IMG/VR virus record: IMGVR_UViG_3300045988_117301
Length of the DNA: 41,741 nt
Reading direction: 5' to 3' (one strand)
Source: a virus
Lineage: Duplodnaviria; Heunggongvirae; Uroviricota; Caudoviricetes
Part shown: positions 17,563-36,431 of the stretch, in pieces
Layout: every line of letters begins with the position of its first letter
How positions within the stretch are numbered: position 1 is the stretch's first letter
Translations under genes and position numbers: made by a program
The notes under the pieces: model-generated
What the model was told of the DNA's origin: nothing
Seen by the model: the letters and a program-made list of their open reading frames with translations, nothing else
Database searches by the model: none

Positions 17563-19521
17563 TTACGCCGTACATTTCACCAGACCGCGGTGATCAACTG
17601 GCGCGACACCGGCGTCAATACGCACTTTCGTTGTCACGCCATCCACACTGAAGCCCTCCATCTGATCAATATATGGCGTATCCACACCGTTGAGATAAGC
17701 CACTTCAATCGTATCGGAGCCTTTTGACGCAGCCAGGTAGAAGGTGGTCTGGCTGTTATCATCAAGACGAGGCTCTGCAATAACGGTCGCAAAATCTTTC
17801 ACCGGGTTAATAATACCGGCGTTAATGTCAGCCCCCTTGACACTTGAGGAGCGAATGACCTGGTTAGCAACAGACTCCATCGCCGTCGGTACCAGTACGA
17901 ACGCAGGACGAATATTCAGATGACGCTCCCCCTCTTTCTGAACGCGCATCAACTGGCGGGCTTTATCCAGCGATGCCACGTCCATTGCAGCGCTCTCCAG
18001 TACGTTTGCATGTTTCGCTTTATCGAACAGACTTACATTATCTGTGGAGATTTTCGGGTTAGACGTCAGAATGGCATAAACCAGATCGGCAATAGTGGAT
18101 TTCGCCGCACGGCCCAGTTTCATCGGGACATCGGTCAGCATATTCAGATCATCATTGATAATGGCCTGACGGGTGATACTGAACAGCTCGCCATAGGTCG
18201 CCAGTGCAATAGTGGCCTGTTTATCTCCGGTGGTGACGTATTTATATTCCGCCCCTTCACGCACCTGACGCAGAGCACTGAAGCCCCCCATACCCACACG
18301 ATGGGCAATTTTAAAATCAGACAACTGACCTTTCCGCGTCCACTGTTCATAGGTTTCAGGAGCATCTTCCCAGCCCTGCAGAATGGCTTTGTTCGCAACA
18401 TCCAGCAGAATATTACCGAAGTCAGACGTACTGTGTGTGAACGCCGCACCGACCATCTGCATCGGGTTATAACTGGAAACCCCAATACCCCGTTCAGTCA
18501 GTGACATACGGGCATATTCACGCAGGGTCATCCCGTTGTAGACATTATCACGTTCGGTTTTTTCAAATCCGGCACGCGCCATCAGCGCCTGGCGGATCCC
18601 GTCCCCCACAAAATTACCGTTACCGGCATAAATATGAGCCGGTGTATTTTTATTGGATGGCGTGGACTCGCGCCCCATCTCGTTCAACAGCTTTTCGCGG
18701 GCCTGCTCCAGCGAACATTCAGGATCGGCAAGACACTGAGCCTGCAGCGTCTGATAACGCCCGCCAAACATGGCAAACAGATCATTAATACCGTTTACAC
18801 GCGCTTTTTGCTCTGCCAGTACCTGCGCACGGATACTGTTTTCATCCACCACGGGTGCTGCTGCCTGCACTGGCGTCCGGGAGGCTGCAGGTTCATCATC
18901 CTGTACGCGTGGAGCACTGTTGCGTGGCGGAGTAATCATGTTTCGAATGGATTCCGGCATCTTTTTAAATTCCTCTGTACGTTTTGACTGAATACATGCC
19001 ATTGCCTTAACGGCTGGCGTCACCTGATCAGCAAATCCATGTGCCAGACATTCGGCACCGGACATCCAGGTCTCATCCGCCAGCATGGCAGCAATTTCAT
19101 CGGTGGTTTTCCCGGTTTTCTGTGCATAAGCGGGTAACAGAACCGCCTCAACCTTATCGAGCAGGTCGGCATAGGTGCGCATGTCCTCCGCATCACCGCC
19201 CGTAAAGCCAAATGGTTTATGAATCATCATGAAGGTGTTTTCCGGCATAATGACCGGGTTTCCCACCATCGCAATGACCGACGCCATTGACGCCGCCACA
19301 CCGTCGACATAAACGGTAATGGACGCACCATGTGTTTTCAGCGCATTAAAAATGGCGATGCCTTCAAAGACATCGCCACCCGGTGAATTGATATGGAGAT
19401 TAATGTGGGTGATATCGCCCAGTGCATTCAGATCACTGATAAACTGCTTCGCTGTAACACCCCAGAAACCAATCTCGTCATAAATATAAATATCCGCGTC
19501 ACTCTGGTGACCAGCCTGCAT
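17563..19521 (-). CDS. Prohead protease (ClpP/S14-like) fused to major capsid protein
   Basis: N-terminal region INLHINSPGGDVFEGIAIFNALK...VDGVAASMASVIAMVG (ClpP-like Ser motif) then a large capsid domain; start chosen at ATG 19521 just after the portal stop (19535). Confidence 0.85.
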   Translation of the reverse strand: MQAGHQSDADIYIYDEIGFWGVTAKQFISDLNALGDITHINLHINSPGGDVFEGIAIFNALKTHGASITVYVDGVAASMASVIAMVGNPVIMPENTFMMIHKPFGFTGGDAEDMRTYADLLDKVEAVLLPAYAQKTGKTTDEIAAMLADETWMSGAECLAHGFADQVTPAVKAMACIQSKRTEEFKKMPESIRNMITPPRNSAPRVQDDEPAASRTPVQAAAPVVDENSIRAQVLAEQKARVNGINDLFAMFGGRYQTLQAQCLADPECSLEQAREKLLNEMGRESTPSNKNTPAHIYAGNGNFVGDGIRQALMARAGFEKTERDNVYNGMTLREYARMSLTERGIGVSSYNPMQMVGAAFTHSTSDFGNILLDVANKAILQGWEDAPETYEQWTRKGQLSDFKIAHRVGMGGFSALRQVREGAEYKYVTTGDKQATIALATYGELFSITRQAIINDDLNMLTDVPMKLGRAAKSTIADLVYAILTSNPKISTDNVSLFDKAKHANVLESAAMDVASLDKARQLMRVQKEGERHLNIRPAFVLVPTAMESVANQVIRSSSVKGADINAGIINPVKDFATVIAEPRLDDNSQTTFYLAASKGSDTIEVAYLNGVDTPYIDQMEGFSVDGVTTKVRIDAGVAPVDHRGLVKCTA

Positions 19522-29763: not shown

Positions 29764-30759
29764 TCAGGCCAGCACGCCAATTGCCAGCGCACGATCGATA
29801 AAACGAAATATCAGCTCCAGCTGGGAGCCATACTTCTCTTCAAATGCCACGGTATCCGCATGCAGCTCGTCGTGATGCTTTCTGCACAAAGGCAACACAA
29901 AGAGGTCATGCGCTTTTGTACCCATTCCCCCCTGACCGTGGCCTATCAGGTGGTGGGGATCATCAGCAGGCTTTCCACAACATGCACACGGCTGTGTCTT
30001 AACCCAGCGTGTGTACTTTTCATTAACCCAGCGGCGACGTTTTGGGCGTAACATAAAAGACTCCGGCGACTCCGGATCCACTTTCAGCGCCAGCACCTTT
30101 TTCGCCTTATCCTGGATGATGCTGGTGGCAGGAACCGAAGGCACAAGGTCACTTTCCCGGGTGACAGACGGCACAACAGGCTTCGGTAATCTCAGTGCCT
30201 TACGGGCTGCACTTTCCGGTAAGGCATCCGCCAGGTCATTACGAATCAGCCACCAGCACAGTTCCGGCATTGTCACAACGTGACTATCATCAAAACCGAG
30301 ATCCCGACGCACAACAGACAACACCCAGCGGGCACAGTTATCCGTTGCCATTGATTCCAGCCGTTCCGTGAACTGATCGCGCAGCTGGTTATCGCAGTGC
30401 CAGCACAGACGGATTGCGCCCGGCGCGTGTCGCATTGTTGTCATGTTCTCGCTGTGCCAGTCGGAATGAGGCCACTGGCAGCCTTTTTCACGAAGTAACC
30501 AGCTTTCAAGACATTCCACGCCACCAGCACGACGGATCACTTCCTCATTGCGGAACACGGCCCGAACGGCAGGATCATCCGCCAGCGGTTGTGATGCCGC
30601 CGGAACGACACCACTGGCGAAAGATGAATAACGTTCCGGCTCAGGCTCCAGCAGGACACGCCCCTGCATAAACAGGGGCATCAGCTCTGAACCTGGCCTG
30701 AACAATACGATCCCCATACGCGGGGCAATTTCAGGGGTCAGTAGTGCTCTCACGGTCAC
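29764..30759 (-). CDS. DUF968-like protein with C-terminal HNH-type nuclease motif
   Basis: 331 aa; C-terminal [43 protein letters not shown]; lies upstream of Q as in Qin/Rac-type prophages. Confidence 0.7.
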
Positions 30760-32302: not shown

Positions 32303-32952
32303 GCCGCCATCTCCCTGACAAGTTTTTCTGCCTGCTGGCGAACCTGCGCCAAAAACGCCTCACCACATGCCTCAAGTTCATCGCGCCCGATGTAGCTGAT
32401 TGCCGGTCCCTTCCAGGTCTTGTCGAAAACAGCAATAGCACCAGCGAAGAAAGCGCCTGTCGGCACCTGCTTCTCATCCTTCGGGATAAACCAGGCAGGC
32501 AGTTCAAAACCAATACGCCCGCGAATAAAAGCAATATGGTCTGCATCTTCCGGCCACCACACTTCGCTGGTGGCAGCTTTGATCAGGAAAACATAGCGCC
32601 CACCCTTATCACGCATGGCACTGGCATGTTTCATGATGTAACGCATGCCGGTGATGTATTGCCCCTCATGCTGACTGGCGCGGCTGTATGGGGGATTACC
32701 AAAGGCAGCCCCTTTAAGCTCCGCAAGACGTTCTGACCAGTCATGCGCCAGCGCGTTGTCTTCCGCCGTGTAATACGCAGCACATTTGGCGTTATCACCG
32801 TCAGTGAACAGATCCAGAACAAACGGGCCAAACAGGGTGTTAATTCCCCAGAAAATGTTGTCCGGCGTGCGCCACTGATCGCCCACTTCCTTCAGTTCAT
32901 GGGCTGGTTTGTTCCGCAGTTCCACCAGCGCCTGGCAATATTTATTACTCAT
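32299..32952 (-). CDS. Phage N6-adenine DNA methyltransferase (Dam-like, NPPY motif)
   Basis: NPPY catalytic motif (GNPPYSRA); start at ATG 32952 overlapping upstream stop (TAATG). Confidence 0.8.
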   Translation of the reverse strand: MSNKYCQALVELRNKPAHELKEVGDQWRTPDNIFWGINTLFGPFVLDLFTDGDNAKCAAYYTAEDNALAHDWSERLAELKGAAFGNPPYSRASQHEGQYITGMRYIMKHASAMRDKGGRYVFLIKAATSEVWWPEDADHIAFIRGRIGFELPAWFIPKDEKQVPTGAFFAGAIAVFDKTWKGPAISYIGRDELEACGEAFLAQVRQQAEKLVREMAA

Positions 32953-33440
32953 TAAGCCCCCACGTAATTCCCTGACAGATACCACTCTTCACCCGATGCA
33001 GCGCGCTTGCTGCTTTTCCGTAAGCACCGCTCACGACGCGTCAGAAAATTGTTTCGTTCTGGCTGGGAGTGGCTTTCACGGAATGCCGCCATCCACACGG
33101 TTGCAGCACGACGGTATAAGCCCCTTGACTCCAGTTCTTCAGCCTGGCGGGTCAGGCACAAAATCACCCGGGGATCGTTAGTGCCGACATAGAAATTGCG
33201 CACAGGTCTGGTTTCACGAACTGGTTGTGGTTCCGGCTCCTGCGCTCTCTCAGTCAGGCGCGGGAAATGTCTGCGTGTATCTCCTTCACAACGGTGAGCC
33301 ACACGCCCACTCTGACGTAACTTGCTTGCTGACTGCAGAACGCGCTGCCGTGAGTAACCTGCAAAAGCATCCGCAATGTCTCCGGAAGTACACCCCGGAT
33401 GGGCTTCAATGAATTTCTGAACTTCATTCAAAAGACTCAT
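32952..33440 (-). CDS. Regulatory protein with PerC/Pch-like C-terminal motif
   Basis: C-terminal LYRRAATVWMAAF...ERNNFLTRRERCLRK resembles the PerC/Pch family pattern (LWRRA..W....RRxxC); N-terminal winged-helix-like segment. Confidence 0.45.
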   Translation of the reverse strand: MSLLNEVQKFIEAHPGCTSGDIADAFAGYSRQRVLQSASKLRQSGRVAHRCEGDTRRHFPRLTERAQEPEPQPVRETRPVRNFYVGTNDPRVILCLTRQAEELESRGLYRRAATVWMAAFRESHSQPERNNFLTRRERCLRKSSKRAASGEEWYLSGNYVGA

Positions 33441-33442
33441 GA

Positions 33443-34261
33443 TCACCCCCTGAATCCTGCCGGGATCTGGCTGTAGTCCACGTTGTCGTAACTGGCTTTG
33501 AAGTACGGATCCTCACGTCTGGCTGCAGATACCGCAGGAACTTCCCAGGATTCTTCGAAATGACGATCCGGACCAAAGAACGTGACAGCCTGTTTCACAA
33601 ATTGTGTGCCGCTGTTACCCATCGCAGATACCCAGCCCGCATAGCGTTTCACACCTTCCAGCATGGTTTCGGGGTTTACCCCCTCATTCAAACGGGCTTT
33701 CCAGGCTTTGAAGGCTGCAGATTTTGAATTGCCACCAGCACGTTTGGGGTATGCCAGCCATGCCTGCTCAAACTCCGGAGAGTATTCCGGTCGGTTTGAA
33801 CGAACTCGCACAGACTCATCAGCAGATGCACCAACAGCTATTGGTTCATTGACTGGTTCTTTGACTGGTTCAAAAGAGTGACTGGTTCTGGGTGAATCTC
33901 CTGCACCACCCCCTGGTGCAACTCCTGCACTACCTGGTGAATTTGCTGCACCAGATAGTGAATTATTTGCACTACCCCCTAGTGAATCTCCTGCACCATC
34001 AAGATGAAGGAGATAGATATTACTTGAGTTACCTTTTTCACCTTTCCGGGTGACTTTTTTTACCAGTCCGGAATCACAAAGAGCCGCAATATGATTCATC
34101 ACAGAACGTTTGCTAATCTCGCACTGGTCAGCAATATGCTGGTAGCTGGGCCAGCACTCACCCTGATCGCTGGCGTTATCAGCCAGCTTGATCAGAACCA
34201 GTTTTCGCAATGGATTACCCACTCGAATTTTCATCGCTTTAACCATCAGCTCCATACTCAT
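33443..34261 (-). CDS. Replication initiator O-like protein (N-terminal HTH, Gly/Ala/Ser linker encoded by iterons)
   Basis: Start ATG 34261 with Shine-Dalgarno GGAGG and ATGA overlap; low-complexity linker GSANNSLSGAANSPGSAGVAPGGGAGDSP coincides with DNA iterons. Confidence 0.8.
   Translation of the reverse strand: MSMELMVKAMKIRVGNPLRKLVLIKLADNASDQGECWPSYQHIADQCEISKRSVMNHIAALCDSGLVKKVTRKGEKGNSSNIYLLHLDGAGDSLGGSANNSLSGAANSPGSAGVAPGGGAGDSPRTSHSFEPVKEPVNEPIAVGASADESVRVRSNRPEYSPEFEQAWLAYPKRAGGNSKSAAFKAWKARLNEGVNPETMLEGVKRYAGWVSAMGNSGTQFVKQAVTFFGPDRHFEESWEVPAVSAARREDPYFKASYDNVDYSQIPAGFRG
33849..33998. repeat. Candidate replication origin: three TGACTGGTTC repeats and five 18-bp iterons (consensus GGTGAATCTCCTGCACCA) at about 22-bp spacing, then an AT-rich stretch
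   Basis: Iterons at 33891, 33915, 33936, 33958 and 33981; located inside the O-like gene as in lambda ori. Confidence 0.6.
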
Positions 34262-34482
34262 GCTGCACCTCCGAGATGCTTCATGTTTTTTCCGGAGCAA
34301 AAGGCTATAAGCGGCATACTGATGCGGTAATTACGGCCCAGCGGTTCACAAATCACCTTCTGACATTCACGGTCAACCAGGCTGACACGTAGAACATGCC
34401 CTGCAGGCGTGGTGTACCACTGACCAGGACGAGGACAACGGAAAGTCTGATTGGTAAACCGTTTGAAAATATTCCGGATCAT
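34258..34482 (-). CDS. Hypothetical small protein (translationally coupled)
   Basis: 74-aa ORF whose start and stop both overlap neighbouring genes (ATGA overlaps). Confidence 0.4.
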   Translation of the reverse strand: MIRNIFKRFTNQTFRCPRPGQWYTTPAGHVLRVSLVDRECQKVICEPLGRNYRISMPLIAFCSGKNMKHLGGAA

Positions 34483-35630
34483 TTGCGCCCCCTTACCTCT
34501 GAAGGGTTCAGCGACAAATTTATGAGGCAGGCCAGTGCCGAAGCATCATTAATATAGTCATACAAGCTAACAGCCAGCGGAGATTCGGCTTTTGCCAACA
34601 TAGGATAAAGCTGCTGCAGCCAGACCTGATGAATTGATGAAATGTAGGAATAGAGAACGCTGGCGTTATGTGCAACGTCGCTCAGTACAGAGGGATTTGA
34701 AAGCTGTTTCTCCATCTGGTTAAAGGCATTGATGTATGCCTCTTTGAACTGGGCAGCACGTTTACCCGTGAACCCCATAGCAAGAAACGCAAAGCCGTCG
34801 CGGGTTATTTGATAGCAAGGTAGTTTGCGGCCTGTGCAATCGGTGTAATCACTCACCGAAAAATTGCGGGCAGTGAATGATGCAGAGCATTCAAGCGTGC
34901 GGATCTTTTTCAGTACATCGTCATGACGTTTGGAGAAGAAGTTGGCAACAGCCAGGGATGAAGTAACAGCCTGACCATCAACGATGGCAATTTCAGGTTG
35001 AGTGAGGGTTGGGATCGTAGCCATGATGGCAGCCTCTTTGGTGATTTTTAATAACTCACCACCAAGGCTTTCCACGACCTTATTGGTGGTGAGACGTACA
35101 GGGGTGGAAATACCGGTCACCAAAGAACCCGGCCCAACCGAAGTTGGCCCTGCACGCCCCACCATAATTTGGGCGTAATGCTGCTCATTACACAAAAAAA
35201 CCGCAAGAGCGCGGTTGTGCGCTTTGGTGAATTCCGGGTTTCCACGCCCGGCACCCGCTTTATAAGGTGCCTGAACAGTGTAACGTCCCGGAATGGCAGA
35301 ATCAATGTGCTGGTGGTCCTTCACACTCAACAAAATCATGCCTGAATTTCCACAAAGGACTAAAGCACTCATGCGGGTAGTCTTTGCGAAGATAGATAAC
35401 GCGCTGTGTTTCTGGCTCCCAACGAATAACATGGACATAAAGCCCTCTTCCGTCACGAAACCAGCGGTTAAGTTCCTGCACAACTCGCCCCCCACAGTCA
35501 GGTAAAGTTCTCTGTGGTTACTTACAGCCAGGTGATTTGGTAATCTGCATTCATACCGTAACAACAGGTGTTCAGCGACACTGACCACCAGCTGTTGCGA
35601 CAAACGGTTATTTGCCGTTAAACTGTTCAT
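34479..35630 (-). CDS. Rha-family regulatory protein with a 200-aa in-frame N-terminal extension of unknown function
   Basis: ATG 35630 overlaps cII-like stop (ATGA); internal ATG 35027 with Shine-Dalgarno AAGAGG precedes the Rha-like part (MATIPTLTQPEIAIVDGQAVTSSLAVANFFSKRHDDVLKKIR...). Confidence 0.6.
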   Translation of the reverse strand: MNSLTANNRLSQQLVVSVAEHLLLRYECRLPNHLAVSNHRELYLTVGGELCRNLTAGFVTEEGFMSMLFVGSQKHSALSIFAKTTRMSALVLCGNSGMILLSVKDHQHIDSAIPGRYTVQAPYKAGAGRGNPEFTKAHNRALAVFLCNEQHYAQIMVGRAGPTSVGPGSLVTGISTPVRLTTNKVVESLGGELLKITKEAAIMATIPTLTQPEIAIVDGQAVTSSLAVANFFSKRHDDVLKKIRTLECSASFTARNFSVSDYTDCTGRKLPCYQITRDGFAFLAMGFTGKRAAQFKEAYINAFNQMEKQLSNPSVLSDVAHNASVLYSYISSIHQVWLQQLYPMLAKAESPLAVSLYDYINDASALACLINLSLNPSEVRGRK

Positions 35631-36178
35631 GCGTTAGTTTCTCCACAGACACAAAACGCCACGACGCCCGGAGCTGCACACTCGCGGGCGTCACTCTTTT
35701 CTGGAGCGCAGAAGATTTTGTAGACCAGTGCTGCATGCTCCTGGAGCTTCGAAATTGACAGATACAACTCATCATTAATTGCTGTCTGCTCGTGTGGCTC
35801 CACGACCCCATCTTCGATTGCCGAACGAATCTGCTTTGAGTAATTCCCGATCTGTTCGATGACTTCCAGCAGGCGCTGGTTTATATCGGCGTTCTCTACT
35901 TCCTCAATTTCAGGAAGCGATACGAACACCCCACCAGCAGACTGTGCGACAGCATCCGCAATGTAGTGAGTGCCAGCCGCGCGCTGTAAAACCATTGCCC
36001 ATCCCAGCGGGAAAATCTGATCGCCATCTGCACGAAGGCGGTTGAATAAAGCGTTCTCTGTTACATCCAGCCAGTCAGCAGCTTCAGCGTAACCCCCAGG
36101 CAATGCCGCGATAGTTTTTCTGACAGCTTTCACGTACCACTCAGGTTGTTTTTCCACTTTCCAATGATGCTTACCCAC
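35627..36178 (-). CDS. CII-like / YdaT-like early regulatory protein
   Basis: 183 aa directly downstream of cro; GTG start with Shine-Dalgarno AGGAGG. Confidence 0.5.
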   Translation of the reverse strand: MGKHHWKVEKQPEWYVKAVRKTIAALPGGYAEAADWLDVTENALFNRLRADGDQIFPLGWAMVLQRAAGTHYIADAVAQSAGGVFVSLPEIEEVENADINQRLLEVIEQIGNYSKQIRSAIEDGVVEPHEQTAINDELYLSISKLQEHAALVYKIFCAPEKSDARECAAPGVVAFCVCGETNA

Positions 36179-36431
36179 GGCTTACCTCCTGTTCCTGTGG
36201 TTTAAACCCATTCTGGTTTTGGCTAGATTGAAAACGTGCCGGATAAAGAATCTGCATTTCGCTGATTTCACCCTTAAAAAAATTGGCCAGACGTTCTGCA
36301 AGATCGATAGATGGAATTTGTTCCAGTCTTTCAATACGACTCAGCGTCGCTGGATTGACCTGAACGCCCGCAGCAACATGCTGCAAAGTAAATCCGTGCG
36401 CCTTACGCACATTCCGTAATGGTGATTGCAT
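36171..36431 (-). CDS. cro: Cro-like HTH repressor
   Basis: 86 aa, XRE-type HTH (FTLQHVAAGVQVNPATLSRIERLE); divergent from cI; Shine-Dalgarno GGAGG. Confidence 0.8.
   Translation of the reverse strand: MQSPLRNVRKAHGFTLQHVAAGVQVNPATLSRIERLEQIPSIDLAERLANFFKGEISEMQILYPARFQSSQNQNGFKPQEQEVSRG

Follow-up and report, generated by a model that had tools for sequence, protein, structure and literature searches.

A likely iteron-type replication origin with a conserved 10-mer block inside the initiator gene of a lambdoid prophage

Results

The early-right region and its initiator gene

The window analysed here, the whole 41,741-nt stretch of record IMGVR_UViG_3300045988_117301, is a lambdoid prophage, and its initiator region is 100% identical to that of the isolated phage PhiR40_1, whose complete annotated genome served as the reference. 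The early-right operon runs from cro through a cII-like gene, an Ash/Rha gene and a small ORF to the initiator gene, with a PerC/YfdN-like gene directly 3' of it (Table 1); Dam, a LexA-DBD-like gene, RusA and a KilA-N gene follow on the minus strand. In the 383-aa Ash/Rha ORF, aa 117-213 form an Ash domain and aa 223-308 a Rha domain, whereas Pfam gave no match for the first ~100 residues. A few genes downstream of the initiator lies a DUF968 gene (29767-30753, minus strand) whose C-terminus is HNH-like; in a class of relatives with a 340-aa initiator (L029, L038, L040, L072, L107) a DUF968 gene is the immediate neighbour, again with no recognisable loader. A promoter scan of 33300-34500 returned no sigma-70-like promoter. 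A terminator-like hairpin with a T run (TCACCTTTCCGGGTGA CTTTTTTT; 34038-34063, plus strand) is located immediately upstream of the AT-richer stretch, antisense to the initiator gene; one such hairpin was found against 0.9 expected, which is chance level.

Table 1 Features of the initiator region (positions in the window)
Feature	Position	Strand	Remarks
cro	36171-36431	-	early-right operon, first in order
cII-like gene	35627-36178	-	early-right operon
Ash/Rha gene	34479-35630	-	early-right operon
74-aa ORF	34258-34482	-	early-right operon, between Ash/Rha gene and initiator
Initiator gene, 272 aa	33443-34261	-	starts MSMELMVKAM, the family consensus start
Winged-helix DNA-binding domain, coding	33998-34261	-	predicted recognition helix ISKRSVMNH at aa 49-57
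AT-richer stretch	34000-34040		encodes the winged-helix end (KGNSSNIYLLHLD); directly upstream of the iterons in gene orientation
Iteron array, five units	33891-33998		33891-33908, 33915-33932, 33936-33953, 33957-33974, 33981-33998
Putative origin core, three 10-mers	33850-33889		GAACCAGTCA on the gene strand at 33879-33888, 33862-33871 and 33850-33859; CTCTTTT between the first two
28-nt core	33862-33889		AGAACCAGTCACTCTTTTGAACCAGTCA
Degenerate fourth 10-mer copy	33838-33847		GAACCAATAG
Helical C-domain and tail, coding	33446-33793	-	EFEQAWLAYPKRAGGNSK...TFFGPDRHFEESW, tail ...DYSQIPAGFRG
PerC/YfdN-like gene	32952-33440	-	directly 3' of the initiator

By family assignment, the 272-aa protein is a replication initiator: it matched HTH_36 in Pfam (2.8e-11, 43.5 bits against a cut-off of 25, aa 17-67) and, over nearly its whole length (aa 3-271), PHROG 270 'replication initiation protein' (1.1e-88). 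An earlier note on this DNA had called it O-like, a label that does not hold, as Phage_rep_O (PF04492, the lambda O family) gave no match up to E 0.01 and the best hits were HTH_36 and DnaD_N, placing the protein in the HTH_36 family with a DnaD-N-like winged helix. No match was obtained in PDB sequence searches with the whole protein and a C-domain profile, an NCBIfam search returned nothing useful, and there was neither a significant Pfam DnaB_2 match nor a sequence link to solved DnaD structures. An AlphaFold2 model built on a 37-sequence alignment showed a confident winged-helix N-domain (aa 1-88, pLDDT about 90), a disordered segment (aa 91-155, pLDDT <50) and a second confident, helical domain (aa ~160-240), followed by a low-confidence tail (aa ~246-272). 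The C-domain and tail are presumed to form a helicase or loader recruitment module. In RefSeq the protein is named merely 'helix-turn-helix domain-containing protein', and no origin is annotated here in the phage records examined.

Five partly palindromic iterons encode the interdomain linker

The five repeats in the middle of the gene have units of 17-18 bp with the gene-strand consensus TGGTGCAGGAGATTCACC. All five iterons described in the earlier note were recovered at 33891-33998, with a spacing of 24/21/21/24 bp rather than a uniform 22 bp. Four copies within three mismatches of the 18-mer consensus occur in the window (0.03 expected; 0/100 shuffles), and the unit at 33957 is more diverged, with five mismatches. 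Their 17-mer cores are partly palindromic (GTGCA-N5..7-TTCAC, five-base inverted arms), with 10/17 self-complementary positions in four iterons and 8/17 in the fifth (P about 0.035 per unit). The array encodes aa 88-125 as GAGDSL/GSANNSL/GAANSP/SAGVAP/GAGDSP, adjoining and within the segment predicted to be disordered, in agreement with the earlier description of the iterons as lying inside the initiator gene and coding for its linker.

When the codons of the iteron segment were redrawn synonymously with the peptide kept, unit-to-unit identity was 0.48 +/- 0.03 and never exceeded 0.60 in 5000 resamplings, compared with 0.772 in the window. The iterons are thus more alike than the peptide repeat requires, indicating selection at the DNA level rather than a merely repetitive linker. 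These data support the view that the iterons would behave as protein-binding DNA sites and not as by-products of the linker.

Array length changes in whole units. Among near-identical genes the iteron copy number ranges from ~1-2 to ~9, and relatives are 242-302 aa long through linker repeats alone, being otherwise 97-100% identical (87% for the shortest). Phage cdtI has an exact 66-bp duplication that adds three iterons (L002 4338-4710), and E. coli strain EC20 (H166) carries 90 bp more in the array. The number of EPVK/10-mer units also varies among near-identical genes, from two to four.

Iteron classes follow the predicted recognition helix

Relatives whose N-domains are 47-54% identical have different palindromic repeats at the same gene position and with the same 21/24-bp period; examples are Stx phage 24B (GGGGCAGGAGCTGCCC), Salmonella phage S107 (GCACACCCCCTGTGCC) and Vibrio phage D160 (GTGACAAAATGTCAC). 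Their linker peptides are unrelated (STPVPPE, PSDKMSP, GGAGAA) and the palindromes at the 21/24-bp period are kept, some of them as perfect 5+5 palindromes. Across 177 distinct relatives' genes, the best period upstream of the conserved core was 21-24 nt in 171. At least nine iteron classes occupy this position, and the class co-varies with the predicted recognition helix, each variant having its own palindrome: ISKRSVMNH goes with GTGCAGGAGATTCAC, IGRSTVKVH with GGGCAGGAGCTGCCC and CSKSAVRxH with GCAYAsCCCCTRTGCC, and IDRSTVRKH, ISERSVQNH and others are further examples.

A different HTH_36 initiator of 313 aa is found in PhiR29_2 (L019 2949-3110; L020), with six to seven GTCAAAATCTGAC palindromes that recur every 15 bp. 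Its last 31 residues are the tail of the window protein, and the same YfdN-Dam-LexA-RusA block follows it, which places a mosaic joint within the 3' end of the initiator gene.

A 10-mer block next to the iterons is conserved as DNA

The three TGACTGGTTC repeats that the earlier note had placed beside the iterons are indeed present (Table 1), and relatives share CCCAGAACCAGTCACTCTTTTGAACCAGTCA at the nucleotide level directly past the last iteron. An exact 23-mer of the core occurs in at least 120 viral contigs, where it adjoins at least nine iteron classes, and the core was found in 139 phage records from eight or more genera, including Escherichia, Salmonella, Klebsiella, Vibrio, Aeromonas, Stenotrophomonas, Pectobacterium and Aggregatibacter. 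To guard against circularity, 80 species-level loci were gathered by N-domain peptides alone; 66 of them, high-GC Pseudomonas included, have the 28-nt core with at most three mismatches. The plasmid collection held the core in 15 records only, mostly phage-sized, arguing against a plasmid replicon type. Core 14-mers had no match in the searchable literature.

In 62 of the loci, we compared nine core codons with 32 equally conserved N-domain codons. The fraction of the top synonymous codon was 0.99 in the core and 0.55 in the N-domain codons (p = 3e-6), with the rare codon AGA in 58/58, AGT in 60/60 and TCT in 60/60. Core residues vary despite these frozen synonymous sites (T/I at 53/47%; F/S/L), the 10-mer copies of one gene are read in two frames (RTSH, EPVK) in 165/195 genes, and some Shewanella read the whole block in a third way, as HPEPVTLEPVNE. 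Synonymous sites that are frozen while residues vary, together with reading in several frames, indicate that the block is selected as DNA. Its distance to the array is also fixed: in 88 genes, the last palindrome is centred 9.5 nt ahead of the core. From these observations, the 10-mer block is probably the half of the origin that does not depend on iteron specificity, acting as an unwinding or helicase-entry site. The block as a conserved non-iteron partner of the iterons would be new here.

The block might instead be a recombination joint between N- and C-modules, or have a function in the mRNA, and be neither an unwinding nor a helicase-entry site. N- and C-domains are shuffled exactly around it (8 N versus 10 C clusters), and lambdoid phages are known to keep short conserved sequences at module boundaries, such as a 33-nt block around oop (PMC3349717). 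However, future recombination exerts only weak selection, and yet the block is retained in most loci, with rare codons (AGA); its internal 10-mer repeats held at a fixed distance from the last iteron speak for a protein-binding or strand-opening site. An RNA role for the block was discarded, as it had no credible Rfam match (mir-875 alone, with 22 bits where the gathering score is 84) and single-strand folding gave no signal (z -0.04, +0.32). Altogether, we consider the joint or mRNA explanation unlikely.

Two side observations concern the block. The first 50 residues of the initiator (MSMELMVKAMKIKVGNPLRKLVLIKLADNASDQGECWPSYQHIADQCE) are nearly invariant in all iteron classes and genera, like the 10-mer block itself, and the two may be functionally linked. 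In two genomic relatives, L161 and L193, the initiator ORFs end inside the block (133 and 118 aa, ..PEPVTLLNQ*); the frame is shifted upstream, so these are probably decaying prophages.

Two modest stability minima flank the array

In gene orientation, the AT-richer stretch comes first, on the N-terminal side, followed by the iterons and the 10-mer repeats. The AT-richer stretch noted earlier is real, with the lowest 40-bp GC (0.325) at 34000-34039, but it is modest, and the conserved non-iteron element next to the array is the 10-mer block instead. It holds the least stable 31-bp stretch of the gene (dG -33.9 kcal/mol, 99.6th percentile of the window), and a stability dip occurs at the same place family-wide. 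The core region is likewise a local minimum of duplex stability throughout the family; the window's own block lies at about the 84th percentile with a GC of about 0.40, and Aliivibrio has a true A+T tract after the block. Thus, two modest minima flank the iterons, neither near a true A+T tract. The segment 34000-34030 lost priority as a lambda-like unwinding region, given its place on the N-terminal side and the conserved peptide for which it codes. The 10-mer block nevertheless melts less easily than 34000-34040, so the unwinding site could be at the latter.

The window has just two DnaA boxes (TTWTNCACA), at 19121 and 26603, a number below chance expectation. Neither is near the origin, and no IHF sites or GATC clusters were found there. 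A DnaA-mediated, plasmid-style loading of helicase is therefore without visible support, given the absence of nearby DnaA boxes and IHF sites.

No helicase loader gene, and a tail that tracks the partner

The absence of a P-like or DnaC-like loader gene, stated in the earlier note for the region downstream, extends to the whole window. Searches (tblastn) with DnaC-, DnaB-, primase-helicase- and P-like references against the whole window gave nothing below E = 0.4, Pfam identified the neighbours as PerC-like, Dam, LexA-DBD, RusA and KilA-N with no loader or helicase gene among them, and the 59 annotated genes of PhiR40_1 include neither. Phage Ayreon (host K12) has the same gene layout.

The C-domain of the initiator recurs behind other N-domains, and C-domain types track the genes downstream, which are lambda-P-like, DnaB-like, DnaC-like plus DnaB-like, or primase-helicase genes. 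Full-length homologues with 67-76% identity, from E. coli, Citrobacter, Klebsiella/Raoultella and a metagenome, are all directly followed by IstB/DnaC-like and DnaB-like genes, and they differ from the window protein in the last ~25 residues. Here, the window tail ..DYSQIPAGFRG fits the motif [DN]xx[IV]P[AP]GFRG, which was seen in about five contexts. GFRG-tail loci have no partner gene in 32 cases, a DnaC-like gene only in five and a primase-helicase in one, and none stands beside a phage DnaB-like helicase; those lacking a helicase belong mostly to one closely related E. coli lineage and amount to about five independent cases. The associations between tail and partner were drawn from the coding stretch 33446-33526 of the window and from loci L009, L010, L019, L036 and L143. 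Other tails have other partners: ..LTF, ..DCNW and ..GANF go with DnaC-like plus DnaB-like genes, W..DF[IL], DPEDPLI and TSDDL with lambda-P-like genes, and AITVSKTGYVFFDR with primase-helicase.

On the simplest reading, the window lineage would have lost a DnaC/DnaB pair and now engage host DnaB, probably as the DnaB-DnaC complex. As the phage encodes neither a helicase nor a loader, the helicase must be host DnaB, and its direct use, with or without DnaC, is our best inference from the gene content.

Alternatively, the PerC/YfdN-like protein or another small ORF could be an unrecognised loader acting like lambda P. The gene holds the place that P or DnaC-like genes occupy in relatives; its start codon lies 3 nt past the initiator stop with AGGGGG in front of it, a hint that the two genes are coupled in translation. 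It also travels, together with the same tail, behind a different initiator in PhiR29_2 and mEp460_4F5, and in Pseudomonas and Aeromonas relatives the next ORF belongs to no known family. On the other hand, phage cdtI has the same initiator and tail without a PerC-like gene (dam follows 50 bp on), making an essential loader unlikely, and 606R7 has the tail without YfdN. The protein itself matches transcription-factor families (PerC, MarR-like, ANR), with Pfam PerC at 5.6e-9, PHROG 1324 'transcriptional activator' and a MarR-like winged helix ahead of the PerC domain. A hidden loader in the window thus seems very unlikely.

In some relatives, the ORF next to the initiator is without a Pfam match; it measures 250-265 aa in Pseudomonas (L141-L163), 163 aa in L174 of Aeromonas (L174/L179/L180/L184) and 117 aa in L165 of Marinomonas (L165/L169), and it may encode an undescribed helicase loader.

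Discussion

The repeats most likely form the replication origin of a lambdoid prophage, located within its initiator gene, and comparative evidence supports the iteron-type origin that the earlier note had proposed. In our model, winged-helix N-domain dimers would bind the five partly palindromic iterons, whose spacing of about two helical turns would set the bound dimers on one face of the DNA in a complex resembling the lambda 'O-some'. This complex would destabilise the flanking DNA, the likeliest target being the adjacent GAACCAGTCA 10-mers, a block held at a fixed distance right beside the last iteron. Tethered through the disordered linker, for which the origin itself codes, the helical C-domain and the ..IPAGFRG tail would then bring in the replicative helicase, i.e. 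host DnaB, which would most likely arrive in complex with host DnaC. We infer from sequence comparison that the N-domain binds the iterons, that the duplex opens at the 10-mer block and that the host supplies the partner, and regard the model as a whole (embedded origin, N-domain on the iterons, opening nearby and recruitment of host DnaB by the C-domain) as probably correct.

Iterons may be genuine initiator sites and still serve mainly autoregulation or copy control, by handcuffing or as a roadblock, with initiation elsewhere in the phage. Plasmid iterons also serve control, and no strongly A+T-rich tract, DnaA sites or IHF sites adjoin the array. However, a second element at a fixed distance, under DNA-level selection and common to all iteron classes, is a requirement of an origin and not of an operator, and the layout matches that of the lambda origin, defined by experiment, and the one reported for P22 (PMC8022706); control without initiation is accordingly very unlikely in our judgement. 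Least credible of all is a mere Gly/Ala/Ser/Pro linker produced by slippage or unequal crossing-over, with no role in cis and the origin elsewhere. In its favour, every spacing is divisible by three, the encoded peptide repeats of 7-8 residues fall in a disordered segment and copy number varies as in tandem repeats. Against it, the DNA identity of the iterons lies above all 5000 synonymous resamplings, the units are palindromic, relatives with different linker peptides keep palindromes at the 21/24-bp period and iteron class follows the recognition helix.

An origin of iterons within the initiator gene, the reading we favour, is of a known kind, established in lambda, with reports for P22 and L (PMC8022706), and the window holds a variant of it. 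As in lambda ori and O, dyad-symmetric iterons in mid-gene encode a flexible link from a DNA-binding N-domain to a partner-binding C-domain, and the iterons are followed, towards the C-terminal side, by a second origin element. In lambda, this element is an A+T-rich region, a 40-bp tract downstream of the iterons in gene orientation. The window has GAACCAGTCA 10-mers in place of this tract, five iterons at 21/24-bp spacing, an HTH_36/DnaD-N-like initiator instead of Phage_rep_O, and no P gene. The arrangement had earlier been said to mirror lambda ori, which is true of the iterons in the middle of the gene coding for the linker, but not of the AT-richer stretch, which is on the N-terminal side.

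Iteron plasmids (pSC101 RepA, F RepE, R6K pi, RK2 TrfA) use a single initiator, iterons and host DnaB/DnaC; their origins lie outside the rep gene and have DnaA boxes, the unwinding element consists of short repeats, and Rep comprises two winged helices. The window would share with them the single initiator gene, the iterons, an element of short repeats and the use of host DnaB/DnaC as deduced here, and differs in having the origin inside the initiator gene and no DnaA boxes. DnaD-like 'replisome organisers' are known from Gram-positive phages, e.g. SPP1 G38P/G39P. Unlike these, the family of the window protein has Gammaproteobacteria as hosts, and the protein shows neither the DnaB_2 match nor the link to solved DnaD structures.

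Among lambdoid phages, the P22 gene 18/gene 12 and phage L modules are reported to have initiators that each carry their own iterons in the coding region (PMC8022706). As in P22, relatives of the window initiator also pair with a DnaB-type helicase, whereas the window phage has neither helicase nor loader. In the non-lambdoid 'Eru' replication regions of Stx phages, HTH_36 proteins stand beside Rha proteins upstream of cI (PMC8044961, PMC8951638), and the initiator gene of the window is found in Stx2a and Stx2c phages. The two Eru papers classify gene content only, and the terms 'iteron' and 'origin of replication' are absent from their text (PMC8044961, PMC8951638).

What our comparisons would add is a modular code, in which the recognition helix pairs with the iteron and the C-terminal tail with the helicase partner. 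A bolder version, tentative and in our view doubtful as a whole, holds that the 10-mer block is a universal sequence-specific origin module and the C-terminal peptide a docking code for the helicase. Such a module may be common to a whole superfamily of phage origins in Gammaproteobacteria, irrespective of which iterons or which helicase partner each origin uses, and the block may be read as DNA, perhaps as single strands, by aa 1-50 of the initiator or by a conserved host factor. If the docking code were true, an initiator without a loader could load host DnaB directly.

The initiator gene with its origin matches DNA in 2719/5426 complete E. coli genomes, and in 880 of these the match covers at least 80% of the query; the gene is present in Stx2, cdt and serotype-converting phages. 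A known origin and its modular logic would yield predicted initiator-site pairs open to recognition-helix swaps, and also a defined cis element for studies of how a phage without its own loader loads host DnaB. The 28-nt core could serve as a marker for this origin class across Gammaproteobacteria. As phage copy number affects toxin output, the proposed origin would also bear on the control of replication in toxin-converting phages.
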